From a virus (lineage: Duplodnaviria; Caudoviricetes), in the IMG/VR virus record IMGVR_UViG_2936413993_000002, positions 11,053-75,052 of that record: 64,000 nt of DNA. The stretch is one strand, 5' to 3'. Below are positions 2,649 through 58,281 of the stretch, one piece after another (position 1 is the stretch's first letter; each line of letters starts with the position of its first letter). The notes under the pieces were generated by a model. It was given only the letters and a program-made list of their open reading frames with translations, did no database searches and was not told the DNA's origin. The position numbers and the translations under genes are program-made.

Positions 2649-2729
2649 AATTGATTCACTCCAAACTATCTATATGTTCTTGTCATATATCGCCTCGGTT
2701 TGATATAATAAAGACAAGCATTCGTGCTT

Positions 2730-2770
2730 AAAGAGACTGTTTAACCTCAACCGTTGACAGTCTCTTTTAT
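2730..2770. terminator. Intrinsic terminator-like hairpin
   Basis: AAGAGACTGT...ACAGTCTCTT inverted repeat immediately after the spike gene stop. Confidence 0.55.
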
Positions 2771-2772
2771 TG

Positions 2773-5772
2773 TTATCTGATAAATACCAATGCAATTCCA
2801 TAGCCAATTGATTCAATATACGGCTTAGTTATTTTCATAACTTTCCATCCTTGACCACGTTCAACTGACATTGTTGCAATTCCATCAGATGGTTTTATGT
2901 AATCGCCTTGCTTAACTGTTTCATCAATTCTTACATATACCTGACCAACTAATCCTACAATGTTCCATTCAGGTCTTTCAGAACGGGGAAGATAGTTGTC
3001 CGATTCCTTATAATTAGGATTCTCTTTAGGCAATAAAGCTACACGATTAGTCGTTGAACCTGTATCTGCATTGACTTCAGTAAGTACAACTTCTTCATAA
3101 ATTAATCCTCCAAAGTCATTTCTTAAGTATTTACCTTGCCAATAGAATGAAGATTCACCTAATACACTTCCTGCAGTTTCAGAAATTACTCCTAGCATAT
3201 CGTCTCCATCTTTAGCAATACGAATAAACCCTTGATCTAAGGTAACAAGAGTTCCACTTGGAATACTGTTGCCATCTATACTTTCAAAATACTCGGCGTA
3301 GTCACTAAAAGAGGAGGAGCCTGTAATAGCGCCTGTGGCTTTAATAGTACCGTTTGCTGCATCTAATTCAATATTTCGATTAGCAGTTGATGGAGTCCAT
3401 CCATGACCCAATACTACTGTATTACTTCTAGGATTTATAACGTTATTAGAAGCCAATACAACTGATTCATAAGCATCCGTATTTGTTATTTTAGATCCAT
3501 TGGAAGCTATAATAGCTCCACGAGTATTCTTCAATTGTGAATCTCCAGATGATGAAATAATCGCATTGTATTCTCCTGTTGTGTCAACGTTAGAAGAAGA
3601 AATAATTGCATTTTTACTACCGCTGGCAATCGAATTAGCCGTACTTGCTGCAATAAATGCCGTATCAGATTTAGCTGCTCCTGATGAACTGGCTACAACT
3701 AATCCATTACGAATACGAGAAGGGGGAGTGGTGTGATCTACCCCTGCGATAGTTGCTTGTTTACTGTATCCAGAAACTGTTAAGCCTAGTAGATTATTTT
3801 GTGAGTTAATAGCAACAACACCAGTTCCACTATTACTAGTTTTATATAATGCTACCTTAGAAATGTCAGCATTTGTAACTTGGCTTCCTAAATAAATACC
3901 GTTTTTCGCAGATTCATAACTTGTCATATTACTCACATTTATATTGTCGGCTTTTTGTGCACCACCAGTTATATATAAATCATTATCCGCATTTTTGAAT
4001 CCACTCACTTTAACGTTATTTACATTTATCAATCCTGATTTATACTGAAAGACAATTACAGAATCACCAGTAGTTAAATTAGAAGATTCACCGATAGCAG
4101 TAAAATTATTAATATTAACATTTCGATATGCAGAAACAACCAATGCACGTGGTCTCAACGAAGCATATAGAGAACCCGTTTTAGGATTAATAGCCGTGCA
4201 ATTATTTAAAGTAACATCAAAAGCATTTGGTGAAATAGGTTCATCATCTGTGTGGTGTCCAATATGACGTAAATCAAATGAACGAATACTGTTGATAGAT
4301 TTACAGTTATCTAGTGTAATATTTCTAGCAGCAGGGGCATATACATGCGCCTTTATTTCAAACCCACGAACTCCACCAATAGCCGTACAATTTGTTACCC
4401 AAATATTTCTTGATCCGTCATCTATTTCAAAGTTATTGCTGTTAGCCGCACCTTCTTCATGTACATTTCCAAGAGGGGCGTAGGAATAGCAATTATTAAA
4501 ATAAATATACTCGCTGAAATGAGTAGTGAAGTTATCATCACCCGCTCCAGTAGCAATACAACTATCAAGCCATATATTTGAGCAACCTTTTGGTTGATAG
4601 TAAGTAGGACTATTTTGTCCACTTGTTCGGTTATACTCCGGAGAAGTAATATCAAAACAATGTAAACCACCGTTCTTAGAAAAAACTCGATTTATCCATG
4701 CAAATTGAGTGTTAGCTAACATTAAACCAGAAGAAGTCGGACCCGCTGGAATTGTGTAACCAGATCCCAATCTTTCTCTATTCCAATCTAATTCCAAGTC
4801 TTCAATACGTATGTGAGAATTGCCGTTATTGACTTTATCGGAGTTAGTAAATAAGTGTTCTCCAACAGGAGCATTTTCAATTAACAAAATATGAGTATTG
4901 TATAAACCATCCCCATAAATATAAGTGAAGGAAGGAATATTTACTTGTCTAGTTCTGTATGTACCGGCAGGAAAATATAATTCTACATTACCATCCCCTA
5001 ATGCTGCCTTAATAGGTTCTGTCCAGTCCCAAAAGTCAGGAGAGGAGGCAGTGTTCTTATTAGGAATTAAATCTTCAAATTCGTAAATTGATAATCTGTG
5101 TTTTATCTTTTTCGATAACATATAGAATGCGTCTAGTTTTACAGATTGTTCATCTATTGTTTTATCTACTGAATCAAAACGATTTTTAATAGACGTATAG
5201 TGTCTACCATCTGCACCTTCAAAAGCTTCTTCAACAGAACCTTGAATTGCTGTAACCATATCTCTAGCTACTTTATATACTTTTCCGTTTCTATCGACCC
5301 TTAAATCAACAACTTCACTGGGTTGAGGATTTCCTACTATTAATTCATCAACACGATTTTTTTGTTCTAAATCTGCACGATCTAAATCTTTGAACTTCAA
5401 TGCCACATTAGTGAACTTTTTATCTCCAGTTAAATAAATTCTAGTATCAGGAGTATAATAAGCACCTTTACCGAAATATTCTACTGTTACACTTTTATCA
5501 TTATTATCTGCAGTAAAAAAGACTACACCTTGAATGTAGTCGACTTGGTAGTAATTATTTTCTAAAGCTTCATTTTCGACTTCATACCATGTTTTATCTG
5601 GGCTTGTGACTATGACTTCTCTAGTATGTTCTGGAACCTCACGTAAAACTGCTCTGCCGTTGACAATCTGAACGGTTTCAACAATGTGTTTGTACGGATC
5701 AGTTGCATCGCCTTTCCTACTTAAAAAGACAATGGGGTCGTTGTAATTAATTATTTCATCATCCCAACTCAC
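2773..5772 (-). CDS. Tail spike / receptor-binding protein: pectin-lyase-like beta-helix with C-terminal peptidase G2 (intramolecular chaperone) domain
   Basis: 999 aa; YFPAGTY and repeated beta-helix rungs (GAGDDNFTTH, NNFEIDDGSRNI); C-terminal S-DYAEYFES...YLPRSERPEWNIVGLVGQV motif like the phi29 gp12 pre-neck appendage autocleavage domain. Confidence 0.85.
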   Translation of the reverse strand: MSWDDEIINYNDPIVFLSRKGDATDPYKHIVETVQIVNGRAVLREVPEHTREVIVTSPDKTWYEVENEALENNYYQVDYIQGVVFFTADNNDKSVTVEYFGKGAYYTPDTRIYLTGDKKFTNVALKFKDLDRADLEQKNRVDELIVGNPQPSEVVDLRVDRNGKVYKVARDMVTAIQGSVEEAFEGADGRHYTSIKNRFDSVDKTIDEQSVKLDAFYMLSKKIKHRLSIYEFEDLIPNKNTASSPDFWDWTEPIKAALGDGNVELYFPAGTYRTRQVNIPSFTYIYGDGLYNTHILLIENAPVGEHLFTNSDKVNNGNSHIRIEDLELDWNRERLGSGYTIPAGPTSSGLMLANTQFAWINRVFSKNGGLHCFDITSPEYNRTSGQNSPTYYQPKGCSNIWLDSCIATGAGDDNFTTHFSEYIYFNNCYSYAPLGNVHEEGAANSNNFEIDDGSRNIWVTNCTAIGGVRGFEIKAHVYAPAARNITLDNCKSINSIRSFDLRHIGHHTDDEPISPNAFDVTLNNCTAINPKTGSLYASLRPRALVVSAYRNVNINNFTAIGESSNLTTGDSVIVFQYKSGLINVNNVKVSGFKNADNDLYITGGAQKADNINVSNMTSYESAKNGIYLGSQVTNADISKVALYKTSNSGTGVVAINSQNNLLGLTVSGYSKQATIAGVDHTTPPSRIRNGLVVASSSGAAKSDTAFIAASTANSIASGSKNAIISSSNVDTTGEYNAIISSSGDSQLKNTRGAIIASNGSKITNTDAYESVVLASNNVINPRSNTVVLGHGWTPSTANRNIELDAANGTIKATGAITGSSSFSDYAEYFESIDGNSIPSGTLVTLDQGFIRIAKDGDDMLGVISETAGSVLGESSFYWQGKYLRNDFGGLIYEEVVLTEVNADTGSTTNRVALLPKENPNYKESDNYLPRSERPEWNIVGLVGQVYVRIDETVKQGDYIKPSDGIATMSVERGQGWKVMKITKPYIESIGYGIALVFIR

Positions 5773-5790: not shown

Positions 5791-8700
5791 TTAAGATTTG
5801 TATGCTTCCCAGTAGTAAATGACATTTAATTTATTTCCATAGCATTCAGTTGAATTGCCAGTGAAGAAACCACCACTATCTAATTTCCCATTCGCAATAG
5901 ATATGGGGGAAATGAGAACACTATTTTGTCCAAATAAAAAACCGCCTTCTGAAGACGGAATGAATAAACTAACATCTGTTGAGTTAGTTGTATATAATTT
6001 AACCAAAGAAGGGGAGAAGGGAAGTGCTATTAATTTACTTTGTGTTCCATCTCCGACATAGCTACCACTAGCAAACCTTGATGCATTGCCTAACTGTGTT
6101 AAAGGAACATTTGCAGTTGAATCTAAGGTTGCTAACCCATTTGAAACTCCAGGTCTACGATTTCCAACGGAATTAGCATTTCCTGTAATGGATGCGTTTA
6201 TCAAGCCTTTTGAATCTCTAACTGGAATAGAATTTGGAACATCATTAATATCAGTTGGATAACCCGAAACAGAATTAGCATTACCTGATGAAAGAGGTTT
6301 ATATCCAGTTTCGGTTAGCACTGATTGTTCTAAAGTTGCAGGGTTTACCCATACAGTCTTGTTTACCTCGGCTTCTTCTGGTTCAACATCTGAAGTAACA
6401 TAAATTGCCCCGTTTACCTTTCCGTAGAGTAATCCATTGACAACCGTTAATTCACTTGGTTGATAAGGATTTTGGTTTACGTCAGAAGGAGTTACTAAGT
6501 CAGAAAAGATAATCCCATCTATGTTAATGTCATCATCAACATGTCTATAGGCTCGAACCCCCAATGTATAAAAACGATTAGGAGGGACGCTTGGGAAAGT
6601 GTATGTTTTAATAGAATAATTAACGGATATTATAGTTTCCTTTGCAATTGTTGATCCGAATACATAGCGTTCTTTGGTTAAATCTGAATACATGTAGACA
6701 ATAAATCCGTCAATGTTATCTGCATCTTTTTTAGTCTTTTCGTAATCATTATAATTCCAGTTTATTGTTAAGTCAGCAGACCCATTATCGTTAATTTTAT
6801 GTGCAATAGTTACGTTGGTTGGACTATTAGGTGTAACTGAAATACGATCATTTCGAGAATTAAAATTTGTAGCAATATTGTTCCAATTGCGCTTCCGTTT
6901 ATTGTAATCAGTATTAACCTTATCAATAGTATAAAGAGCATTTATTAATCTTTCTTCATCGGATTTAGGTCTCTTAGTATTAGTAACGTTAATGCTAATC
7001 GAATAATTATCAAAATCAAATGCTAAAGAATCAACGGTTACTCTGACATCTATTCCTATTTTTTTATGTTTAATTTTAATAATGTCACCAATAGATAAAC
7101 GATTCCAATTATGTTTTTCTTCAAGGACAGCAAAGAAATTTATTATCCCCATTGAAATATTAATAGGAGGGGAACTAATATTTTTTAATTCCGTAATGGC
7201 AGATTCATACAAATCAGCATCATTTATTTGACTGTCATCTGAATATTCGCCCTCGAAAATAAAGTTCCTCAATTCTATTAAAAGGTTATCAGCAATATTG
7301 TTTTCTAATTTTAATAATAAATTTAATTTAGAAAGCTCAACATCAACATTGGTTATTTCAGCCTGTTTAGAAGATAATTGCTTTTTCTGAGATGATATTT
7401 GAGATTCTTTATTATCCCGCTGCTGATTCAATGAGGCAGTTGATTCTCCACCATCTTTTGCTATTTGAATATTGTCTAATATAATCGTTAACTCGTTTTC
7501 TAATGTTCTAAATTTTGCATTTATATCCGCTAATTCCTTTTGTAAATTTGATTTTTTTTCTAGTAATTTACTGAAAGTGCCTGTGTTATTTTCTACTAGT
7601 TTATTATAGTTGATTAATGCAAGGCACAGTTCATCAGACATATAATAGCTGTGATTTGTTATATTGCCTTGAGTATCCATATCAAACGGATAAAGAAAAT
7701 AAGAAAAGTTATCAATATACGATTGTCCAGTTGGATTAACCGAATTAATGGATACATCATTAGCACCACTAACATGCAATCTTGTAACTATATCCTCAAT
7801 TTCATCTGTTTGTTCAATGTTCTGAAGATATTTACCATATTCAACCCAAAAACCTTTATAAATAGAAACTTCTTCTTCCTTACAAATATGTACCTTTTTG
7901 TTAACCGTGTCGTAAATTACATACGCATTAAATTTTTTACATATCTCATTGATAAAATCTAATTTACTACTGCTAGACACATCAAATTGATGGTACTTCA
8001 AATTGAATTCATCGTTTATATATCCAATGCTCCAATTAGTGTCTTTTAAAACATCATTTAACACTTGGAGGCAGTTATAAGATACAGCTTGGTAATTCAA
8101 CATTTTACGATATCTTAATTCATACTCTAGTGAAAAACACTGAACATTAATTAAGTCACTATCTGATGAAGAGGGCTGTTTTTGAGTAATAATATACCAA
8201 GACTCTACACCAGCAAAAAGTAACTTTATTAAAAATCTCTCTCTTAATAAATTCACTGTTTTATTTGAAACTAATTTATTTAATACTTCTATTTCATAAG
8301 GAAGAGAGAAGGATAACTCATTAGGATTTGTAAAATTTAGTGTCAACTTTCTATTGTACGATTCAGATAAATCTGCAATCACATTTCCAGTAGGAGTAGC
8401 TAAGAACAATTGGGGATTAGCTACATTTTCTCCATTTCTAACAATATAAGAACTAATTAAGCTATTAGGGTTAACTAACTCTTTTTCATATGGTATTTCT
8501 ATTGGAGGCTTAATTACTCCATCTGTATCATCATCAGGTTGCTCAACATCGTCACCATTACTACCATCATCATCTGGTTCTTCTGGTAATTCAGGAACAA
8601 TAGGAGGTTCAGGCTCCTCAACTGGCGGTTTTTCAGGCTCTGGCTCTGGTGTTGGAACAGGTGTAGAAACAGAAAACGATGTAAAGTAAGATAGCGGTTT

Positions 8701-9267
8701 AGAACCATATAGTGCATTTAAATCGACATCACCTGATATGCCAGACACTGACCCAGTAGATGTGTATTGCCATAAATCACATGCAATAGAAGGTTTAGTA
8801 CTAGGTTTACCATTGTTCACACCGTATCTTGCAATCCATAAGAAATCTGCTTTAACTCTTGATAATTTATTAGTCTTATAGAAAGAATCACCTGAATATA
8901 ACCCAACCTTTTTAGCACCTTGACTATGTAAATAATCAATAAAAGCTTGAGTCGCTGGAACTAAGTCGCTTGAATTCCTAGTTGTAATTTCTTCAACATC
9001 AATAACATAAGTGGTAGCGTTTTTGTCTGAACGTTTCCAAAAATCTTTAGCTTCTTGAACGGCATCGCTCACAGAAACATATTGAGCATATGCGTAGTGA
9101 CCAAAGGGTATTTTATATTGTTTAGCACCAGCAACATACTCTTTATACTTAGAATCAATTAAATTAGATCCATACTGGACTCGAATGAAAACATAATCCA
9201 ACTCATTTTTTGCTTTAGACCAATTTATCGTTCCTTGCCATTTAGAAATATCGGCTATTTTCCCCAA
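5791..9267 (-). CDS. Tail-associated (Tal/YomG-like) protein with N-terminal GH25 muramidase domain
   Basis: IADISKWQG, YVIDVEE, LWQYTSTG, GDVDLN motifs of GH25; Pro/Glu/Asp linker; then phage tail domain (IVTRLHVSG, NPTGQSYIDNFSYF) and coiled coil; directly downstream of Dit. Confidence 0.85.
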   Translation of the reverse strand: MGKIADISKWQGTINWSKAKNELDYVFIRVQYGSNLIDSKYKEYVAGAKQYKIPFGHYAYAQYVSVSDAVQEAKDFWKRSDKNATTYVIDVEEITTRNSSDLVPATQAFIDYLHSQGAKKVGLYSGDSFYKTNKLSRVKADFLWIARYGVNNGKPSTKPSIACDLWQYTSTGSVSGISGDVDLNALYGSKPLSYFTSFSVSTPVPTPEPEPEKPPVEEPEPPIVPELPEEPDDDGSNGDDVEQPDDDTDGVIKPPIEIPYEKELVNPNSLISSYIVRNGENVANPQLFLATPTGNVIADLSESYNRKLTLNFTNPNELSFSLPYEIEVLNKLVSNKTVNLLRERFLIKLLFAGVESWYIITQKQPSSSDSDLINVQCFSLEYELRYRKMLNYQAVSYNCLQVLNDVLKDTNWSIGYINDEFNLKYHQFDVSSSSKLDFINEICKKFNAYVIYDTVNKKVHICKEEEVSIYKGFWVEYGKYLQNIEQTDEIEDIVTRLHVSGANDVSINSVNPTGQSYIDNFSYFLYPFDMDTQGNITNHSYYMSDELCLALINYNKLVENNTGTFSKLLEKKSNLQKELADINAKFRTLENELTIILDNIQIAKDGGESTASLNQQRDNKESQISSQKKQLSSKQAEITNVDVELSKLNLLLKLENNIADNLLIELRNFIFEGEYSDDSQINDADLYESAITELKNISSPPINISMGIINFFAVLEEKHNWNRLSIGDIIKIKHKKIGIDVRVTVDSLAFDFDNYSISINVTNTKRPKSDEERLINALYTIDKVNTDYNKRKRNWNNIATNFNSRNDRISVTPNSPTNVTIAHKINDNGSADLTINWNYNDYEKTKKDADNIDGFIVYMYSDLTKERYVFGSTIAKETIISVNYSIKTYTFPSVPPNRFYTLGVRAYRHVDDDINIDGIIFSDLVTPSDVNQNPYQPSELTVVNGLLYGKVNGAIYVTSDVEPEEAEVNKTVWVNPATLEQSVLTETGYKPLSSGNANSVSGYPTDINDVPNSIPVRDSKGLINASITGNANSVGNRRPGVSNGLATLDSTANVPLTQLGNASRFASGSYVGDGTQSKLIALPFSPSLVKLYTTNSTDVSLFIPSSEGGFLFGQNSVLISPISIANGKLDSGGFFTGNSTECYGNKLNVIYYWEAYKS

Positions 9268-10101: not shown

Positions 10102-13100
10102 TTATATATTTCCACCTAATTTTCTTACTCCGTTAACAAATGTATTTAATAATGTTTTAGCACCGTTTTGATCACCAGTCACCTTTAAGTCCCCAAATGT
10201 TACATGGTAATGATTATCTCCTCCAGTAGATATAGAAGGGGAAAGGGAGGGGGCATTAGGTCTTTTAAAACTTGTCTGTAAATTCAGCGCTGCGTTACCT
10301 AAAACTTTTCCCAACTCTAAACTTTTCAACGAATTCGCTAAAGTTTTTGACTCTTCTATAGTCGATAAGAAATTTTCAGTGTCATTTTCTTTCAAAATAA
10401 TTTCTTTCTTATCCAAGTAGGCTAAACCTTCAGAATCACCAGTATATCCGCCGGTATTAAATTTCTGAATTTTGATAGGCTTATAATCTTTACCGTTTAG
10501 ATATCGATTGGCTTGGTTGATTAAATCAATAAGGTTATTAGATATAGCTTTTCCCATGATATTAGAATTAGCTTTAATATTACTGAAATACTTATTCAAA
10601 TCCTTTTGAATCTGACTAGCATTTCCATTGATAATGTCAGAGCGCATTTTAGCAAACTTACGTTCATCATTTACAAGATTATCAAATTCTTCTTGGATAG
10701 AATCCTTTTGAGTATTTAGATTATCGATTCTAAGCTGTTTTTCTCTGTCGGATTGCATGTCATCTAGCACTTCATCCATATCTGCTAATTGATCTTGTAA
10801 CTCTTTAACCTTAGCAATACCTGCAAATGAGTCATCTAATGAATATTTAGCTATGTCATCTAATAACTTTTGTCGCTCACTTTGTTTTTTAGCTAAGTCT
10901 TTTGTGTATGATTCATCGTCATCTTTCTTATTGATAGCATCAATCATTTTATCAATTGTCTTAAGACGAGTGTCTTTAATTGATTCCGCAGCTTGTTTGT
11001 AAGTATCAACAATGGTATCTACCATTTGCTTACGTTGGTCTAATAGCTGAGTCTCAAGAGAAATCATATCTTGAGTACGTTGAAGTAAATCATCTGATAA
11101 TTGAGCTTTCTGCGCTTCGGTTAAAGCTTTATTGTTTTTAATTTGCTCTTTCAGATATTTTATAGCTTCTTGCTCATAACCAAACTGTTTACGAAGTAGC
11201 TTTTCTTTCTTTAATTGCGCATCCGTCCACTTATTAGAAGACTCTGTTTCATAACTTTGAACAAGGTCAATTTGAGCCAAGTCGTCTTCGAGTACAGCTT
11301 TTTTGTAGTCGATGCCAGCAAGAACAGAGTTAACTAGCTCCATATTAAGATCATTGATTTGTTGCTGTATCTGTAATGCTTCTTCTTGCATACTCAATAC
11401 GTCAGACTTAGCTTGGTCAATAGCTTGTATTTTATCTGCTATTGCACTTGATGTATCTGCACTAGCTGAGCCAGTAGGGGTAGTACCAGCATATTTCGTA
11501 TATATACTGTTGGCATACTTTTGACGATTACCTAGAGCATCACCACCTGAACGTTCAAACGCTTTTTCGAATAGAAGGGCAGCATCGTTAACTCCCATAT
11601 TCATGAAAGCATTCATACCACCATTTTTATTAATGATGGACTTTGTTGTAGGGTCTGCACCGTTTAATTCTTTCCATAACCATTCAAGTTGAGTGTTAAG
11701 GTTAGTATAGCTAGTACCTTGAGATCCAGCAAAGTTTTTAAGTCCACTTAAACGCCCACCTAACCATTGAGCGATACCAGTAGCACCTGATGACCTATTA
11801 ACAGCAGTGGTTGAAAAACCAGATTCTTGACGTAAATTTCCCATAATACCAGCAGTTGCAGAATCAGAGAAACCTTTAGACTTAAAGAAATTCCAAACAG
11901 ACGCTTCAGTACTTCCTCCACTTGCATAGTTGGAAGTAGAAGGGGAAGTGGAACTTATAGTTGTCTTAGTACCTTTAGCAACTATATTTCCTGATTTAAT
12001 TTGCTTGTTAAGGCTATTAACTTCAGTATTCATTAACTTCAATTGCTGTTCTTTAAGTTTGATTTCCTGTTTAATTGCATCCTGGTATTTCTTAGAACGC
12101 TGTGGATATTCACTTTTAATTTTATCCACTTTAGCTAAAGCAAGACCTAACTCTTCCATTTTTTGCTTATATTTATCAGTTGTATATGTAGATTTTTCGT
12201 TAGCTTTGCTTGTTTTATCAGAGGAAGATTCTGCAGATGTGCCAACTTCAGTTAATCCTTGAGATACTAATCCAGAAAGTGAATCGATTTGATCATATAA
12301 ATCAATTACATCTTGAATTGAATTGTATGCACCAACCATGTCGTTCACGAATGTATCATCTGGACTAGGTAGCCCGCCCATTGCATACATTTCTAAACGT
12401 TTTTTATTTTCTTCTGATTGAAGATCCGCTAAACGTTTCTTTGCATCTTGTAATGATTGGATAGCCTTAATTTCGATGCCATAATTTTTAAGTTTTGACA
12501 GTGTAGCATTTGCAGTATTTTGCGCTTCTGCTATAACTGATTTTTCCATATCTTTATAAGATTTTAATTTAGCGTCACGAAGTTTTAATACCGCTTCTTT
12601 ATTGATGGATACCTGTCCGTTTTCAATTTTGATAGCATCGGTGAGCGATTTTTCCTTATTCATTAGGTTTATCGCTTCGTTAGCAGATATAGATTTACCG
12701 TTAGCCATTTTCTCTAAAACTTCATTTAAAGGCGAAATTTCATTTGAAAGTGCTTCATACCCATCTTTTAATGCAACATTGACAGCGGCTTGATAATCTC
12801 CAGCTTGAGCCATTTCGATGATAATGTCTTTTATGGCTTCAAAGTCACCTTTAGCATCTTGGAGTCTGGATGATAAATCTTTGTATTCACCCGAAACTTC
12901 CCCGACAACTTCACCATTCTCATCCCAAATTACTTTCTGACCTTTAGCTGCATCTGAAACTCCATTTATACTATCTTTAACTTGTTGGAAGGATAATTCT
13001 AGATTTCTTGATCCGCCTTCAGCAACATTATAAGAAGTAAGAAGATCATCTAAATCAGCTTTAGCAATCTTATAGGCATTCTCATCATTATTTGTTACAG

Positions 13101-14300
13101 CATTTTGCATTTTCTTCATAGCAGAAGATACGTTGGTTGCAAAAGTATTCAGTTCTTCAGCAGATGCACCAGAAACATCAAGTGAGCTAATAACACTGTT
13201 TACTTTAGCAGTAATAGAAGTGTCAATAGTTATGTCAGTAAAATAAGAGTCTACAGTTTTCTGCAACTCTTCACGTAATTTCATTTGTTGCTCATTGTAT
13301 TGACGTTTTAATTCAGTAATTTCAATTTCGATTTTCTTTTTATCCGCATCTGAGTATTTAATACCACTGACTCCAGCTTTATGATCAAGAACTCGATTCT
13401 TTTTATCAATTTTATTGTCTATTTTATCTGCTGATTTCAATGCGGATTGGATATTGTCTTGAGCTTCAAGTTGTTGTAGTTCTTTCTTTTGACGAACAAG
13501 TTCTTTAGTATACTCAATTTCTTGTTTAAGTGCATCTCCAACTTTTAAGACAGCATTTCCTTGTGAGTCATAATGATCAACAAGAGAAGGGAGGAGACCC
13601 GCAAGTTGTTGTGATACTTGTAAATACTCTTTTTCTTTATCGCTATTAAAATTGCCCGAGTGTTTAGCTTCAGTTAATTCTTGATATTTCTTTAATAATT
13701 CATCAGTTGCTTGTTTATTAGCTGTTAATGACTCAACCGTTGTATTCTGAATTTGTTCATATTCTTGTTGTTTTTGTTTAGCTTCGGCAAAGTGGTTTGT
13801 TATTTTTTCGATAGCAAAACCTAAAACAGTTAATATAGCACCTACGCCAGTAGCCACCATTAAACCACGTAATGCTGTTTTAAATACAGCAGTAGCTATA
13901 GCTGCTCTTGACATACCAGCTTCCAAACCAAATAAAGAAGTTGCAGTACCAGCTAGAGATACATTTCCAGTAAGAAGGGCAGTAGACATTCCTCGAACAT
14001 TCTTACTTAGTAATACTGTTGCGACACCAGCAGTTCCCATTACAATAGGTAATACTCCAATTACATCTATTACATCGCCAGTAGTTTTTAGAAAGTCACC
14101 AAATTCTTCAGTAGCCACAATTAAAGTATCAGATATTAGTGCATCTCCAGCACTTACTGCCAAAGATGTAAATGCGTTAGAAAGGCGGTTAATACGAGCT
14201 TGTAGAGATTCTGAATATTTTTCTTGTTCACGCATTGCCGAGCCAAAACTATTAGCCGCTGTTTCAGATGCTTCTTGCGCTATCGAGTAGTTGTTCATCA
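10102..14300 (-). CDS. Tape measure protein, exon 4 (contains phage tail lysozyme domain)
   Basis: Long helical Ala/Lys-rich frame; VWNFFKSKGFSDSATAGIMGNLRQESGF...GIAQW...FER is a phage tail lysozyme motif; joins exon 3 as ...FNA(T/TG=L)MNNYSIA. Confidence 0.9.
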
Positions 14301-14610
14301 CGTTAATTCATATATTTCTATATGCACAGACTATATCATCATCTTAATAAGATGTTCGGCACTTCGAACGGTAGCTCATTACCCGTCCTACAATTAGTCG
14401 TTGCACTTTTCCTCCCATAAAAGAAATAGGGGACTTAGCACAGGATTGCCATATTCAATATAAATAAGATATATTGAACTTAGGTTTCCCTGTTAGCAAA
14501 TTCATTAGCAATCATTTCCTATTGTTACTAAACGTTGAATTTACACCTCTGAGCAATAGAGTTCACCGAATTTTACATATATTATCACTAATATACGGCA
14601 CTGTATTCCA
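14301..14610 (-). ncRNA. Group I intron 3 of the tape measure gene (310 nt, no ORF)
   Basis: Exon ends in U with P1 GCAU/GUGC (U.G); intron ends in G; core GCAACGACUAA (14394-14406) and GAUAUAGUC (14329-14340) form P7; removal restores the frame. Confidence 0.88.
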
Positions 14611-14833
14611 ATGCATTAAACCTCGATAGTTGATACATGCCAGCACCTTTTACACCCACATTTTGTTTTTCAGCATCAGATAGGGTGTTCCATTTAGCCG
14701 CAATCTCATCTAAAATTTGACCAGTTGGCTTTAGTTTTCCATTAGCATCATTTATTGAAATACCAATATCATTTAATGCACCAATTGCTTGAGAATTATT
14801 TGTTAATCTAGCGAAAATAGTTTTTAAAGAGTT
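14611..14833 (-). CDS. Tape measure protein, exon 3 (223 nt)
   Basis: NSLKTIFARLTNNSQAIGALNDIGISINDANG...QLSRFNA, a conserved TP901-type TMP core segment. Confidence 0.88.
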
Positions 14834-15070
14834 CACTCTGTTACTTTCACCAATAAAGGTTACTGACCATAGTTAATTATATGGCGGTAAGGCACTTCAA
14901 CCTTACTCTCTATGTCTCCATAGAAGTTCAGACTATCGCTTCATTCTATTAAGAATGTCTCTTCACTTAGTCGTTCACGCTGCAATTACGCTTGCGCCCT
15001 GTCTCCCTCGTCTAAACGTTAGGGGTTCCAAGTCAATCAGAAGAGATTTAATGTCAGCAATTCGACATTT
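14834..15070 (-). ncRNA. Group I intron 2 of the tape measure gene (237 nt, no ORF)
   Basis: P1 UGUCGGU/GCUGACA with U.G at the splice site; terminal G; core GUGAACGACUAA (14967-14978) and GCGAUAGUC (14931-14942); removal gives ESGNIVG|NSLKTIFAR. Confidence 0.88.
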
Positions 15071-15206
15071 ACCGACAATATTTCCGCTTTCTCTTGTAGT
15101 ACTTGCAATGGCTGTTGTGTAACCAATTAAATCATTTAATTCTACATTGAAAGTAGATGCAGTACTACCTGCTTTACGAATAGAATTTGCTAAATCTAAT
15201 GTTGTT
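15071..15206 (-). CDS. Tape measure protein, exon 2 (136 nt; absent from ORF track)
   Basis: Reads TTLDLANSIRKAGSTASTFNVELNDLIGYTTAIASTTRESGNIVG, bridging exons 1 and 3 in frame. Confidence 0.88.
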
Positions 15207-15517
15207 CAATTATACCCTGTGTTTCCACATATTTAAAAGGGGTTAGACTATATCTTGTAGTCAATGACTACGTTGGCACTTCCTATAAAGGAATTTCACC
15301 TTTACAGTACAATCCTCATCTCCATATCATTTGACGTAGGAGGTACGAATTAGTCGTTACACCTTCAAGAAAGTTTCCCTTCAAGCTTGGCACGGTATTA
15401 CCATATCCCTATGGACTTAGGCTTCCACCGTTAGCATTCGCTAGAACACACCCTGCATTTACAGGTTCACCAACTTCTTATAGTATGTCGCCATACTAAG
15501 CAGCACAACAGAAGTTT
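15207..15517 (-). ncRNA. Group I intron 1 of the tape measure gene (311 nt, no ORF)
   Basis: P1 GCAGU/GCUGC with U.G; terminal G; core GUAACGACUAA (15350-15362) and AAGAUAUAGUC (15246-15257); removal gives NNYA(GT/A=V)TTLDLANS. Confidence 0.88.
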
Positions 15518-16923
15518 ACTGCGTAATTGTTATCAACTTCATTTAATTTATCAGCTATCTGAGCAGAATCTTCCGCAGCTATATTGAAATTGAGCATTGC
15601 TGCAGTAAGAGTATTAACAGTATCATCTGGAGTTAAATCCGAGACATTCTGTAGGATTTGAGCAGTGCGTGATACAGCAGTCAACTGATTTTCATCATAT
15701 CCCATTCGACCAAAGCCGCCATACATATCAAGGATGTCACCGATTTTATTCGAGAGTTGATCACCTAGAGCAATAGATTCCTTCATTAAATCATTAAATT
15801 TATAGTCTGGTAAATCCATCACTCTTCGTAAATTGGTCATTTTTGTATCAAGTTCAACCACTTGATTTGTCATGTCTTTAATAGTATTAACAAATCCATA
15901 AAATGCCCCATATGTAAGCATTCCAACCGAAATAAAGCTAAATGCCGATTGCACTCTTTCGCCAAATGTTCTAGCTTGAGCACCTGCATTTCTTGCTTCT
16001 GAGGTTATTTCATTAAACCTTAAAGACATTTCACGCAATCTTTGATTCAATTGAGGAGTTCTAGCTGTTAATGAGTTTATTGACTGTAAGTAAGCATTCA
16101 ACTGAGCCGTTTGCGTTGAGTTTAAATTAGAATTAGCTTTAAAGTTATTTACTTTTAATTCAGCTTCACGTTGAGCAAGTATTAACTTATTTTGCATTTC
16201 TCTAACTTTATTAACATTATCAATGTTTTGTTTAAGTCTATTTAATTGTTCAATATTCTTAGCACTATTAACTGCATTATTTAATCTAGATAAACTATCA
16301 GAAGATATTTTACCTTCACTGTTTAAAAGTCTAAGGGTATCTCTTAATTTATTTTTACTATTTATTAATGTTTCAGTTGCTTTTCTTTCTTGGTCTAGGT
16401 TCTGTACAGTTTTAACAGAGGTAACATCACCATTGACATTAGAATTTACAGTTGTATTTGTGAATCCATTCTTAAATTGATTAGAAGTAGAAGTACCATT
16501 ATTAGTCTGAGTAGTAACTTGTTTTTGTTTCTGACCAAGTTTATCATACGCTACTTGTAATTTATTTGTATTTTCAATTTCCTTTTGAGTAGCTTTATTC
16601 TTATTATTAATACGAGTTATTTCTTTTTGAATAATTTCTCCACTTTTTAACTGTTGAGAAATCCTTTCTTTTGTAACGCCATTTACATCTTTAGTAATTG
16701 TTTTTTCTTCTTTAAGAACTCTATTCAATTGAGAAGAGATATTCTTATAGTTTTCCATAGCTTTAGCATAATCTGTAAGAGACTTTGCTACTTTATCATC
16801 AAGCTGGATATTTAGTTTAATCTTTGATAAATCTTTTTCTATTTTGGATATTACTTTATTTACTTCGGTAATAGTAGCTTTAGAATTCAAAGTACCTATA
16901 ATTCTAAGTTTTAAATCTGACAT
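15518..16923 (-). CDS. Tape measure protein, exon 1 (ORF track 15496-16923 reads into the intron)
   Basis: SD AAAGGAG; helical N-terminus then TMP core ELDTKMTNLRRVMD...IADKLNEVDNNYAV. Confidence 0.9.
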
Positions 16924-18060: not shown

Positions 18061-18606
18061 TTAAATTTTTATTCCTGATTTTTTCATCGCTTCATTAATC
18101 GCATCCATATATTTCCCTTGCAATCTCCCTGTTCTTGAAGTGAAATCCAATCTCATCTTACTCACACAAACAATCCTTAATACATTCGCCCATCTTGGTA
18201 TTGCAGCTAGATCATATACAAATGGAATATCTACGCAATATGGTTTTCCTTTTTTATCAAGAGGAATTTTCCCACTTGATAAAGGTAACACAAAAACACT
18301 GTCCCCAGTTTCCTTTAATATTACCGCAGGATGATGTCCGCCGAATTCTTTACCTACATTGAAACCAAAATGAACCCAATGCACATAAGATCTTTTAATC
18401 AAAGGAGCTTTATTATCTGGGATAGTAAACAAATCTTCATTTTTGATCATTTCTGTTTTTAAAGTAGTCCATTCTAAATAATTTTTAACTTTTTTCGAAG
18501 ATTCACTACCTGTCCCATATACTGACTTTTTAAAATTCGTAATTGATTGGATTGTATTATCCAGTATAATATCTATTTCATCTTTATTTACTTTGATTTC
18601 ACTCAA
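18061..18606 (-). CDS. PemK/MazF-family endoribonuclease-like protein (orphan)
   Basis: VHWVHFGFNVGKEFGGHHPAVILK...VLPLSS and IVCVSKMRL motifs; likely TTG start at 18606 after SD GGAGGT (ORF track start 18621). Confidence 0.75.
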   Translation of the reverse strand: MSEIKVNKDEIDIILDNTIQSITNFKKSVYGTGSESSKKVKNYLEWTTLKTEMIKNEDLFTIPDNKAPLIKRSYVHWVHFGFNVGKEFGGHHPAVILKETGDSVFVLPLSSGKIPLDKKGKPYCVDIPFVYDLAAIPRWANVLRIVCVSKMRLDFTSRTGRLQGKYMDAINEAMKKSGIKI

Positions 18607-18717
18607 ACTCTCACCTCCCATATTTCTCTACATTTTACCATATTAAGAAAATAGCAGGGAGGAAACTATTCGAAATAAAGAACATTTTGTCAATTATTGC
18701 GGTTGCCTGGGAAATTA

Positions 18718-20184
18718 TTAAATATGAGAAACCTGAAACTGTGTATTTGCAACCATAAAATAAGGTTGAATGATTGTGTTATTTAGAACTATGCTTCCGT
18801 TAGAAGTTAAATGATAGTTAAAACTATTGTAATCATCTAAAATACCATTTTTCAGAATATAAAATTCTATTAACTTTTCGCAGAGAAGAGAATTTTTATT
18901 TATGTCTTTTTCCCATAAATAAAGTATCTTTGTATTATACTTATTTTCAATATAATTTCTTTTTCTAGAATCTTTCTTGGCATTCTTAGCTTGCATATCA
19001 TTTAAATATTCTACACTTTCGTATCTTATAGGAGAGGCATGCCAATAATCTCCCATTATTTCTATTCCTAACTGATAATCAGGTAGATAAATATCCATTG
19101 AATAATATCCAAATACTTTTTCATTTTGATAACTAATCCCTATTGATTCTAACAAATTGTTAATTTTAACATGAATACTTGTTCCAGTGTTTTTTAAATC
19201 AGAGATTTCCATTCTTCTTTGTTGATAACAATCGAATGAGCAAAAGAAGTACTTATTCTTATTAAAAACACTTTCATGCACATACTTAATTTTTGCGCAT
19301 GTATAACATTTAACTTTTACTTTTTCTTTTTTTGGATTGGGATTATGAAGTTTAAAGTATTCATTTCTACATCTCGATGAACAGAAAATTATATTTCCTC
19401 GAATTTCACTAGGATATTTATAGGTTTCTGTATTACATAGTGCACAATAATTTTTTAATTTATTTTGTTCTCTTTTAAAGTCGCTCATTACATCTTTAAA
19501 CTCATCCGTTTTCGTCCATATCAATCGACAAGCATTGGAGCAAAAATATCTATCTTGAGATTCAATTCTGTATTTCGCTAAATAAAATTCATTTCCACAA
19601 GTATGACAATTTACAAAAGAACCTTTCATAATTGAAGTATTCGATTTACCAATTTTATGCTTATCAGCACATCTTCTTGAACAAAAATGATTTTCACCAC
19701 TATTTACTCTTGTTTTTATTCTAATAATTTCAGACGAGCAATATGTACATTTTAGTTGTAATCTCTCAACCCTATATCCTAAGGGACGACCTAGTTTAAA
19801 TTTATCAGTACATTCTTTTGAACAAAAGACATTTTTATTTTCAATTAAATCACTTTTTGCTCTTAATATTTTTTTGTGACAATACATACAATTTAAATCA
19901 ATTTTACTATAATTCCAAGGTTTTTTTCCTATTAAATATGAATCCTGACAATTACGTGAACAAAAATGATTTTTATTTTTAGATTTTCCACTGTAAGTAG
20001 CTATATGATTTTCTCCACAATAGTCACATATAAATTTAACTGGAGCTCTGCTAGAAAAAGGTAAATGCTCCACATTTACATGGAATTCCTTACCGTTCTC
20101 AAAACTCTTATATCCTAGATTAGTATAATAGGCTTTATTTCTATTACTCCATTTCATGACAGTAGTCTGATTAGGCACAATCAC
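18718..20184 (-). CDS. Free-standing homing-endonuclease-like protein: multiple Zn-binding repeats plus C-terminal Vsr/EDxHD-like PD-(D/E)xK nuclease
   Basis: Six CxxC...FCSxxC repeats; C-terminal DIYLPDYQLGIEIMGDYWH...D.RK...ILYLWEKD. Confidence 0.75.
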   Translation of the reverse strand: MIVPNQTTVMKWSNRNKAYYTNLGYKSFENGKEFHVNVEHLPFSSRAPVKFICDYCGENHIATYSGKSKNKNHFCSRNCQDSYLIGKKPWNYSKIDLNCMYCHKKILRAKSDLIENKNVFCSKECTDKFKLGRPLGYRVERLQLKCTYCSSEIIRIKTRVNSGENHFCSRRCADKHKIGKSNTSIMKGSFVNCHTCGNEFYLAKYRIESQDRYFCSNACRLIWTKTDEFKDVMSDFKREQNKLKNYCALCNTETYKYPSEIRGNIIFCSSRCRNEYFKLHNPNPKKEKVKVKCYTCAKIKYVHESVFNKNKYFFCSFDCYQQRRMEISDLKNTGTSIHVKINNLLESIGISYQNEKVFGYYSMDIYLPDYQLGIEIMGDYWHASPIRYESVEYLNDMQAKNAKKDSRKRNYIENKYNTKILYLWEKDINKNSLLCEKLIEFYILKNGILDDYNSFNYHLTSNGSIVLNNTIIQPYFMVANTQFQVSHI

Positions 20185-43226: not shown

Positions 43227-44348
43227 ATGTATTTTGGATTCATAGGTCTTGGGCAAGCAGGAGGCAATATTGCGGATTTGGCAGCTAAGCATTTTTACAC
43301 TAGTGTAGCGATAAATTACTCAGAAACTGATTTAAAATCAATTACTAATATACCTGAGGATATGATTCACTCTTTATTAGGTAGCGAAGGGGTAGGTAAA
43401 GATAGAGAATTAGCTAAACAACTAATGAGAGATAACTGGGAATCAACTGTAAACTTTGTTAAAAAGCATTTATCCAAACCATCAATTGAAGTTATTTTAG
43501 TCCCATTCGGTACAGGTGGGGGAAGTGGTTCAGGGATGAGCTCATTATTATTAGAAATACTATCTAATGAGATGCCTGATAAAACATTTGTAGCTTGTCC
43601 GATTTTACCTGCCAACAATGAAACACTCAATAATAAACTAAATTCGTTAGAGGCTCTTAGTGAGTTATCCGATTTAGAATTTTGCGTTATTCCAATTGAC
43701 AACAATACAGTTCTAACTAATAGTAATACTTTTATCTCTAAAAATATCATTTATAAGAAAACTAACGAGGAATTCATTTCAATGATTAATAAGCTGCTAG
43801 AATACACAAATAAAAGCAGTGAAAATGGAGTGATTGATAGAAAAGATTTGCGACAAATATTCTCGGTGAAAGGAGTGTCAGTCATAGGTGTAGCAAAAGT
43901 GATGGATGTTTCAGGGACAGCATTAACAACTGATCATTTTGCTAAGGAAATACAAGAATCATGGATTAACAGTATATTCGCTCCTATTGAATACGATCAA
44001 GTAATTAGAGCGGGAGTTATTTTCAATGGAGATGACTACTTAATGGAACTTATGGATTATGATGAAATATTTAATGTTTTTAAAAATAAGCGTCCGTATG
44101 ATCTTTTTGAAGGAAACTATAAAGAGAAAAGAGGAGAAGTAATTTCTATCCTTAGTGGTCTACCTTGGATTAACTCAAGAATGCAAGAATTAGATACATT
44201 AGCAGATGAAGAAGAGAATACTCTTAATGAAATCAAAGTTGTTGAGTATAAGCCAAAAGCTAGAAAGAAAAGTGTAATTCCAGTAAGAAGTAGTAGCGTC
44301 AAGGCAAAAAGTAATCCTACTGATGTTTTTAATAAATATCTTCGTTGA
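43227..44348 (+). CDS. Tubulin/FtsZ-family GTPase (TubZ/PhuZ-like)
   Basis: GLGQAGGNIA, GVGKD, tubulin signature GTGGGSGSG, IDN, T7-like IDRKDL; basic C-terminal tail. Confidence 0.9.
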   Translation: MYFGFIGLGQAGGNIADLAAKHFYTSVAINYSETDLKSITNIPEDMIHSLLGSEGVGKDRELAKQLMRDNWESTVNFVKKHLSKPSIEVILVPFGTGGGSGSGMSSLLLEILSNEMPDKTFVACPILPANNETLNNKLNSLEALSELSDLEFCVIPIDNNTVLTNSNTFISKNIIYKKTNEEFISMINKLLEYTNKSSENGVIDRKDLRQIFSVKGVSVIGVAKVMDVSGTALTTDHFAKEIQESWINSIFAPIEYDQVIRAGVIFNGDDYLMELMDYDEIFNVFKNKRPYDLFEGNYKEKRGEVISILSGLPWINSRMQELDTLADEEENTLNEIKVVEYKPKARKKSVIPVRSSSVKAKSNPTDVFNKYLR

Positions 44349-57345: not shown

Positions 57346-58281
57346 ATGAATACAAGTAAATTAGAAGTAGGGAAAACGTATAAAAACTATAAAGAACTAT
57401 GCCTATCAATGGGAGAAAAAGTTAAAACGAGTAAATCAAAACTAAAACATATAGACGACATGTCTAAGTATTTCATCACAAAAAGATGGGGCGACAACTT
57501 TATTGTATTACACATATATGATAAACCATTAGAATTGAATAATAAAGAAGAATGGATGAATAAATTAATCTCATATTTAGAAGTTAAACATTTTAAATAT
57601 TCAAGTGAATCCACAATTTTTCTAAGAGGAGACTCAATAATAAAAGAAATTAAATTTCTATTAAACGAGCATATTAATAATAAAATCCAAGCAATAAACA
57701 AGGTTGTTGAAGTTAGTACGAAAAATATTGAAATTTATTACAACTTAGATGACAGTGGAATATTAGAGTACATAGACATAGCATTGAGAAAATTAAGAGG
57801 ACAATGTAAATTATACTATGATAGATATGATATTATTAATCAAAGATTTAAAGTTTTAGTTAATTCTAGTCATTATAAACGTGAAATTATCAAAGATGAT
57901 ATTAATAAATTGAAACTTGAAAATTATTTAATTGAAGGAAATTCAGTGATACAAGGGATTTATGCAATTGTTAATTGTATAAATGGCAAAAAATATATAG
58001 GTAGTTCAGTAGATATAAATAGGAGAATTAAAGATCACTTTTCAGATTTAAAGAAAGAAGAACATCATAACTACAAATTAAAAGATGATTATAGTAAATA
58101 TGGAAATGATAGTTTCAAGGTTATTATTTTGGAGGAAGTAAACAATAAAAAAGATCTTCCGTCAAAGGAAAAAATCTGGATAAATGAATTTGGTGGACTT
58201 TATAGTGATTTCTTGTATAATATGTCTGATCCTATGAAGGAAGAGGGAGTAATAAAAAATAGATCTCGGAAATTCAATTAA
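57346..58281 (+). CDS. GIY-YIG endonuclease with N-terminal domain paralogous to the 55970 protein
   Basis: GIYAIVNCINGKKYIGSS...R...H...HHN...YN; N-terminal YKNYKELCLSMGEKVK. Confidence 0.85.
   Translation: MNTSKLEVGKTYKNYKELCLSMGEKVKTSKSKLKHIDDMSKYFITKRWGDNFIVLHIYDKPLELNNKEEWMNKLISYLEVKHFKYSSESTIFLRGDSIIKEIKFLLNEHINNKIQAINKVVEVSTKNIEIYYNLDDSGILEYIDIALRKLRGQCKLYYDRYDIINQRFKVLVNSSHYKREIIKDDINKLKLENYLIEGNSVIQGIYAIVNCINGKKYIGSSVDINRRIKDHFSDLKKEEHHNYKLKDDYSKYGNDSFKVIILEEVNNKKDLPSKEKIWINEFGGLYSDFLYNMSDPMKEEGVIKNRSRKFN

Follow-up and report, generated by a model that had tools for sequence, protein, structure and literature searches.

Group I introns within phage tape measure protein (TMP) genes were described in 2008 in prophages of the Bacillus cereus group, where the elements TMP-IVS1, IVS2 and IVS3a/b occupy three sites of the gene (Tourasse & Kolsto 2008, PMC2504315). 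Most of these introns lack a homing endonuclease gene, their distribution is patchy, and they belong to the IA1 and IA2 subgroups; a single site can be occupied by different introns, related introns are spread over several sites, and section 8 of that paper names at most two introns in one TMP gene, in strain E33L. The same source tabulates an intron for the TMP gene of Lactobacillus phage JCL1032. Three group I introns in a single gene are known from orf142 of Staphylococcus phage Twort, which is also subject to exon skipping, and two or three introns per gene, with an average length of 802 nucleotides (nt), occur in polymerase, terminase and nucleotide-metabolism genes of the Bastillevirinae (PMC11878797). 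In Vibrio phage ICP1, splicing of the TMP transcript was confirmed by RNA sequencing (RNA-seq) and reverse transcription PCR (RT-PCR), and the TMP gene was named among those that are frequently interrupted (Barth et al. 2023, PMC10448857). Introns lacking an open reading frame (ORF) have been linked to free-standing endonucleases under the term collaborative homing (Hausner, Hafez & Edgell 2014, PMC3984707), and endonuclease-gene turnover and collaborative homing are discussed both there and in the ICP1 study (PMC10448857). Here we report the analysis of a 64,000-nt stretch, hereafter the window, of the 75-kb IMG/VR provirus record IMGVR_UViG_2936413993_000002, in which three independent ORF-less group I introns have very probably settled, as selfish passengers, within about 120 codons of the PhageMin_Tail core of a YomI-type TMP gene.

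Like the introns of the B. cereus group, those of the window are group I introns that occupy several sites of a Bacillus-type prophage TMP gene; the phages differ, being SPbeta/YomI-type here and lambda Ba01-like there, and the gene described here has three introns as compared with the two named in that source. Twort orf142, as far as it is described in the source cited, resembles the TMP gene of the window in being a phage tail gene that contains three group I introns and has short exons between them, whereas it is a tail tube gene for which splicing and skipping were shown experimentally (PMC11878797) and the present introns are predicted from sequence. The Bastillevirinae and ICP1 likewise provide phage core genes with up to three group I introns and adjoining free-standing endonuclease genes; however, the TMP intron of ICP1 contains an HNH gene and the Bastillevirinae introns, of the average length given above, lie in other genes, in contrast to the short ORF-less introns in the TMP gene of the window. 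No publication pairing yomI with introns was found in a literature search that covered papers without their supplements, and a tblastn search of phages with exon 3 did not help in comparing the sites with those of the B. cereus-group introns. TMP introns and phage genes with three introns are thus already known, and the window represents a further well-supported example.

The window contains an SPbeta-like tail module with a YomG homologue (GH25 and YOMG_N domains), a YomH/Dit-like protein and a YomI-type TMP gene, which extends over 16923..10102 on the minus strand and contains three insertions, 311, 237 and 310 nt in length. An ORF finder called three of the four coding pieces, at 15496-16923 (475 amino acids, aa), 14588-14836 (82 aa) and 10102-14301 (1399 aa), and made no separate call for the 136-nt exon 2. 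Joining the four exons (Table 1) gives 5964 nt, which encode 1987 aa followed by a single terminal stop, with no internal stop codons. The intronless TMPs of SPbeta and SPR cover the four pieces in order by tblastn, the Pfam domain PhageMin_Tail is divided between exons 1 and 3, and exon 4 encodes a tail-lysozyme domain (Phage_lysozyme2). If the RNA is left unspliced, exon 1 runs into a stop codon at 15496-15498, which yields the 475-aa stub of the ORF list. Since exons 2 and 3 are 136 and 223 nt long, the loss of either or both shifts the reading frame. A preliminary description of this locus had already proposed the three insertions, the continuous 1987-aa product, its 475-aa unspliced stub and the frame shift upon skipping of exon 2, exon 3 or both; its coordinates proved exact, and the proposed alignment to intronless homologs bears out the collinearity of the joined product. 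At the DNA level, a megablast comparison of the region with 50,697 phage records returned no match, and a search of phage records in distant mode retrieved SPbeta-type TMPs and scattered intron cores only.

The junctions were located by a scan in which every pair of positions within 60 nt of the alignment ends was scored against YomI. For all three introns, the junction that places a T at the end of the exon and a G at the end of the intron (G15207, G14834 and G14301) has the highest protein alignment score. Intron 1 splits the codon aligned to YomI residue 477 behind its second base, intron 2 follows YomI codon 522 (phase 0), and intron 3 splits the codon aligned to residue 597 behind its first base. 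Each of the insertions contains the P7 pair ACGACTA / ATAGTC, and the ORFs that overlap them are exclusively antisense and 51-57 aa long, in agreement with their earlier classification as ORF-less.

Comparison with the Rfam group I intron model RF00028, for which the gathering cut-off is 50 bits, identified all three insertions on the minus strand of the searched 1.6-kb region 14100-15700: intron 3 at 14308-14574 (E 3.7e-20), exceeding the cut-off, intron 2 at 14908-15159 (E 3.6e-07) and intron 1 at 15225-15527 (E 1.1e-05). When the whole 75-kb record was searched at E<=0.01, exactly these three TMP introns were reported, with E-values of 4.1e-9 for intron 2 and 1.3e-7 for intron 1; at the curated threshold, a search of the 64-kb window reports intron 3 alone. 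In the covariance-model check suggested in the preliminary description, each intron thus gives a match, and intron 3 alone reaches the cut-off. The only matches of other Rfam families to the insertions are two chance matches of small nucleolar RNAs (E 1.9 and 5.3).

Energy folding, in which only the P7 strands were masked, places the exon-terminal U opposite a G in the P1 hairpin of all three introns, as previously described from the sequence, and also shows P2 in introns 1 and 3 as well as P4-P6, P8 and P9. In intron 1, P1 is formed by exon bases 15518-15522 with 15500-15504, U15518 lying opposite G15504, and the P7 strands are at 15351-15357 and 15246-15251; P4-P8, including P7, are present. 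In intron 3, P1 pairs 14609-14614 with 14598-14603, with U14611 opposite G14601, the P7 strands are at 14395-14401 and 14329-14334, and the core P3-P8 is covered by a full-length alignment to RF00028 (model positions 1-253). Intron 2 is compact, without P2 or P7.1/7.2, and combines P1 (15071-15076 with 15053-15058), P3 (15040-15046 with 14958-14964) and P7 (14968-14974 with 14931-14936). The P3-P7 core that had been named as decisive for the intron assignment is therefore present in introns 2 and 3, and in intron 1 its P3 part is ambiguous.

Introns of subgroup IA, the phage type, are marked by P7.1/P7.2 hairpins between the 5' strand of P7 and the 3' strand of P3. At this position intron 1 carries an extra 69 nt that fold into two hairpins and intron 3 an extra 31 nt with a single one; intron 2 has no such insertion. 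Introns 1 and 3 had been described as resembling each other and intron 2 as different, and this view holds for architecture, since introns 1 and 3 have in common a P2 hairpin, additional hairpins downstream of P7 and a long-range helix of similar kind, all of which intron 2 lacks. It does not hold for sequence: the z-scores of global alignments are 2.6 for introns 1 and 3, 3.1 for introns 1 and 2, and 1.9 for introns 2 and 3, and we rejected introns 1 and 3 as a related pair on this basis.

To place the insertions in a wider context, we used 80 related IMG/VR loci, which were retrieved with an alignment of TMP stubs (the exon-1 protein as a single query found no relative in viral or genome contigs), and counted insertions of more than 100 nt inside the part aligned to YomI residues 1-1000. 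At least one insertion is present in 18 of the 80 loci, in every case between YomI codon 466 and about codon 597, and the remaining 62 loci have none; the sites and their occupancy are listed in Table 1. This distribution upholds the suggestion of an intron hotspot in a conserved TMP core. Three loci (L048, L076 and L078) have three insertions each, and a mini-exon of 50 nt flanked by introns at codons 505 and 522 is found in L024 (6755-6804), L026 (6754-6803) and, judged by likeness, L076. The sites of introns 1 and 3 are vacant throughout this set, which also contains no close relative of either intron.

At codon 522, the site of intron 2, 11 of the 12 insertions are 79-86% identical to intron 2. 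In the 11 aligned relatives, identity to the window is 54-62% over the 210 nt of exon next to the 3' end of the intron and 56-58% over the initial 1200 nt of the gene; it is thus higher in the intron than in these stretches, which fits horizontal spread. On the 12-row alignment of intron 2 and these relatives, we evaluated a manually drawn group I structure that includes the P3/P7 pseudoknot. In this alignment 99.7% of the cells are paired, versus 32-48% when the partner strand is slid by 1-3 columns, and compensatory changes occur in 15 of 62 pairs, a number reached by 0 of 500 shuffles; the shuffle test is inflated by the relatedness of the sequences, a weakness that the slide control does not have. 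The compensatory pairs are located in P1 (between exon and guide sequence), P3, P5, P6, P7, P8 and P9a. The U.G pair of P1 is invariant, and two pairs between the exon and the guide sequence co-vary. The full group I core of intron 2, including the P3/P7 pseudoknot, is supported by this covariation. An RNAalifold structure of the same alignment was discarded: it wrongly pairs the 5' strand of P3 with the 3' end, because pseudoknots cannot be drawn by that program.

Table 1. Coordinates of the introns, exons and endonuclease-like gene in the window, and occupancy of insertion sites in 80 related loci
Feature	Position	Strand	Details
TMP exon 1	15518..16923	-	1406 nt; PhageMin_Tail profile positions 6-92; tblastn YomI 5-477
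Intron 1	15207..15517	-	311 nt, no ORF; RF00028 31.1 bits
TMP exon 2	15071..15206	-	136 nt; tblastn YomI 475-522, 93.75% identity
Intron 2	14834..15070	-	237 nt, no ORF; RF00028 36.1 bits
TMP exon 3	14611..14833	-	223 nt; PhageMin_Tail profile positions 136-196; tblastn YomI 523-597
Intron 3	14301..14610	-	310 nt, no ORF; RF00028 79.5 bits
TMP exon 4	10102..14300	-	4199 nt including stop; Pfam Phage_lysozyme2 E 1.1e-32; tblastn YomI 597-2285
Free-standing 488-aa ORF	18721..20184	-	upstream of TMP; repeated Cys-rich zf-FCS-like modules; C-terminal Vsr / I-Bth0305I-like domain
Site at YomI codon 466			insertion in 4/80 loci
Site at YomI codon 472			insertion in 1/80 loci
Site at YomI codon 477			insertion in 0/80 loci; intron 1 in the window
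Site at YomI codon 505			insertion in 4/80 loci
Site at YomI codon 522			insertion in 12/80 loci; intron 2 in the window
Site at YomI codon 524			insertion in 1/80 loci
Site at YomI codon 593			insertion in 7/80 loci
Site at YomI codon 597			insertion in 0/80 loci; intron 3 in the window

Alleles without introns were identified by comparison of public contigs with positions 13800-16200 of the window. A 21.8-kb DNA contig from run X2, with a depth of 97, skips 14299-14612 and has 4 replacing letters; one of its flanks shows 6 differences from the window over 499 nt, and the other, of 442 nt, is identical to it. Another DNA contig, from run X4, skips 15197-15517 and has 10 replacing letters. In both alleles the residues at the join are those of the predicted spliced product, and the differences beside the site are synonymous. 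Introns 3 and 1 are thus present or absent between close relatives, at the predicted junctions. The synonymous changes of these contigs, at 14299-14300, 14611-14612 and 15197-15206, fall on exon bases that belong to P1 and P10 when the intron is present. Two further joints, 14536 to 15448 in run X19 (depth 2.1, with one side of 26 letters) and 15234 to 15316 in run X4, were rejected as apparent cross-matches involving intron cores from other organisms.

Two of the 24 runs, X19 and X20, are labelled as RNA, with word shares of 0.09 and 0.05; the former is probably DNA and the latter gave three short contigs for the region compared. One contig of run X20, a food-fermentation metatranscriptome whose library may contain DNA, is 163 nt long and corresponds to 15329-15491 with complete identity to the core of intron 1. 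Intron 1, or an identical copy elsewhere, occurs in the X20 sample.

From these data we infer that the late transcript, presumably a single precursor, is processed by the three introns themselves. Each ribozyme would fold, use a guanosine cofactor to cut after the exon U that is paired to the G of P1, and then ligate the exons behind the terminal G of the intron; three such reactions would produce the mRNA for the 1987-aa TMP, and RNA that remains unspliced would give the 475-aa stub. Spread of the introns has probably occurred by recombination between co-resident phages, and endonucleases supplied in trans may help it. We propose two reasons why introns accumulate in the TMP core: SPbeta-like phages share a conserved target, and an insertion that is spliced out does almost no harm.

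The preliminary description had gone further in suggesting that splicing acts as a gate on virion production, such that the introns are kept because three correct splicing events time or limit the supply of TMP. Any exon skipping shifts the frame, so output would depend on splicing fidelity, and the literature describes exon skipping at group I introns of phages as well as speculation about an 'on-switch' (PMC11878797). However, the observations do not suggest a conserved regulatory design: intron 3 or intron 1 is missing from near-identical or related phages, 62 of the 80 loci are free of insertions, the other loci have different sets at different sites, the three introns represent unrelated lineages by their alignment z-scores, and no regulatory element was found. 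We consider such a gate quite improbable, and do not retain this part of the preliminary description. Differing presence in near-identical phages, together with the many sites used in relatives, is the pattern expected of selfish elements.

Several observations weigh against three functional introns in an intact gene. Introns 1 and 2 fall under the Rfam gathering cut-off. For intron 1, the model alignment of P3 includes three non-standard pairs and the energy fold favors another partner, so this helix is not settled. In the six related loci scanned with RF00028 at E<=0.01, 5 of 12 insertions were recognized and 7 were missed, namely the three of L078, the long ones of L074 and L080, and the codon-522 members of L048 and L076, the last two belonging to the intron 2 family; the insertions of L078, L074 and L080 are called introns from the junction rules and frame restoration only. 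The intron-less contig of run X4 has a depth of 4.9 and a shorter side of 35 letters, and represents a relative rather than the same phage. No exon-exon joint was seen in the two RNA-labelled runs, which are uninformative about splicing. Combined with the status of the record as an incomplete provirus (58% by CheckV), the sub-threshold scores, the imperfect P3 and the missing spliced RNA could be taken to mean that at least one ribozyme is inactive and the TMP gene is a pseudogene of a decaying prophage. Such decay is quite improbable given that the four exons are open and in register across 5964 nt, with no stops or frameshifts, that P1, P7 and the terminal G are intact in all three introns, that the structure of intron 2 is under compensatory selection across its family, and that the contig depth of 97 points to an abundant near-identical phage in one metagenome. 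The scores below threshold for two of the three introns also call for general caution as to whether the insertions could be another kind of element, such as a group II intron, an insertion sequence, a miniature inverted-repeat transposable element or an intein-like spacer, or whether the pieces encode four separate proteins; nothing specific favors these readings. The insertions match no further Rfam family beyond the chance matches and have no ORF of useful size, one PhageMin_Tail domain is divided over exons 1 and 3, and the junctions restore a YomI-collinear protein, all of which makes such explanations exceedingly improbable. The reading as three independent group I introns remains our preferred one.

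Two of the loci with insertions missed by the model deserve a separate description. L078, a distant TMP relative, has insertions at 6417-6675, 6832-7103 and approximately 7280-7860, the first two of which follow the T/G rule; the third, 540-580 nt long, is placed only approximately and comes in addition to the sites of Table 1. These insertions may be divergent introns that escape the Rfam model. L080 has a 1465-nt insertion at codon 593 (2686-4150), with no RF00028 match at E<=0.01, and the 390-aa ORF inside it has no Pfam or PHROG match.

A 488-aa ORF, free-standing and situated upstream of TMP (Table 1), matches the Pfam family Vsr under the cut-off (E 2.9e-05) and the PHROG annotation 'homing endonuclease' (E 8.6e-06). 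An AlphaFold2 (AF2) model of its C-terminal domain, with a predicted local distance difference test (pLDDT) score of 88.6, was matched by Foldseek to Vsr (1cw0, 3.5e-05) and I-Bth0305I (3r3p, 2.1e-04, target TM-score 0.77), and residues E55, D64, E75, H82, D105 and K108 of the domain are invariant across 34 sequences. When the two endonuclease-like ORFs were compared with PDB by sequence, no significant hit was obtained (lowest E-values 0.29 and, for a hit to 3r3p, 0.22), so that the fold search alone was informative. We hypothesize that the 488-aa ORF encodes a candidate trans-acting homing endonuclease.

The 488-aa ORF is homologous to an intron-borne ORF in the closest relative, L074 (BLASTP E 3e-13). 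The insertion of L074, at the same codon 522 as intron 2, is 1141 nt long and contains a 286-aa ORF with a PHROG match to HNH/homing endonucleases (E 1.4e-10), and its 3' half is homologous to the ORF-less intron 2 family. In L026, L048 and L075 an intact homologue of the 488-aa ORF directly precedes the TMP gene, and L028 has a fragment there; all four loci are intron-bearing, and the first three have the codon-522 intron. No such homologue was found in the 62 insertion-free loci, and the association between this gene and introns has a Fisher p of 0.0005 when relatedness is ignored. This pattern fits collaborative homing or endonuclease-gene turnover, although the loci are related to one another. 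The window resembles collaborative homing in its ORF-less introns, its nearby endonuclease-like gene and the homologue in an intron at the same codon, a likeness drawn from homology, proximity and co-occurrence. A possible, if doubtful, extension is that the TMP core of SPbeta-like phages displays a natural series in which collaborative homing turns into composite mobile introns.

At 57346-58278, on the plus strand, the provirus has another free-standing gene of endonuclease-like type, encoding 311 aa with a C-terminal GIY-YIG domain (Pfam E 3e-12) and a PHROG match to 'homing endonuclease' (E 1.6e-24). Between the 488-aa ORF and the TMP gene is a 186-aa ORF (18064-18621, minus strand) that matches PemK/MazF-like toxin (Pfam E 7.1e-09), with PHROG matches to MazE-like antitoxin over residues 24-118 and to MazF-like proteins over residues 75-181; it may represent a toxin-antitoxin module whose parts are fused or overlap. 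On the downstream side of TMP, also on the minus strand, are genes for a 1158-aa YomG-like tail-tip protein with an N-terminal GH25 muramidase domain (5794-9267) and a 999-aa tail-tip protein with a C-terminal Peptidase_G2 autoproteolytic domain (2776-5772, E 2.9e-83). On the plus strand, a 373-aa ORF at 43227-44345 has a tubulin/FtsZ GTPase domain (Pfam E 3.7e-16) and a PHROG match to tubulin PhuZ (E 8.8e-07), here within an SPbeta-like element that is temperate.

The consequences of such introns for gene annotation can be seen in the protein database, where 103 stubs of 262-823 aa match exon 1. Those with names are mostly called 'phage tail tape measure protein', and their named sources are Bacillus licheniformis, B. 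haynesii, B. glycinifermentans, B. sonorensis and B. atrophaeus as well as Sporosarcina, Terribacillus and Priestia. Most of the stubs end near YomI residues 466, 502, 510-525 or 589-598, that is, at insertion sites, and some ends are perhaps cuts at contig ends. The expectation that automated annotation would treat such genes as broken is thereby substantiated.

A stretch of about 131 codons in YomI-type TMP genes thus represents a dense landing zone for introns, with at least eight sites, up to three introns per gene and mini-exons of 50 nt. Without any new mechanism being shown, this TMP core is a convenient natural system for the spread of ORF-less introns. If the endonuclease-like enzyme does cut intron-less TMP alleles at or close to the insertion sites, the accumulation of ORF-less introns within these codons would be explained. 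The gene in the window and about a hundred 'tape measure' stubs in public databases are split by introns and not broken, and annotation pipelines that are blind to group I introns under-call intact SPbeta-like prophages.

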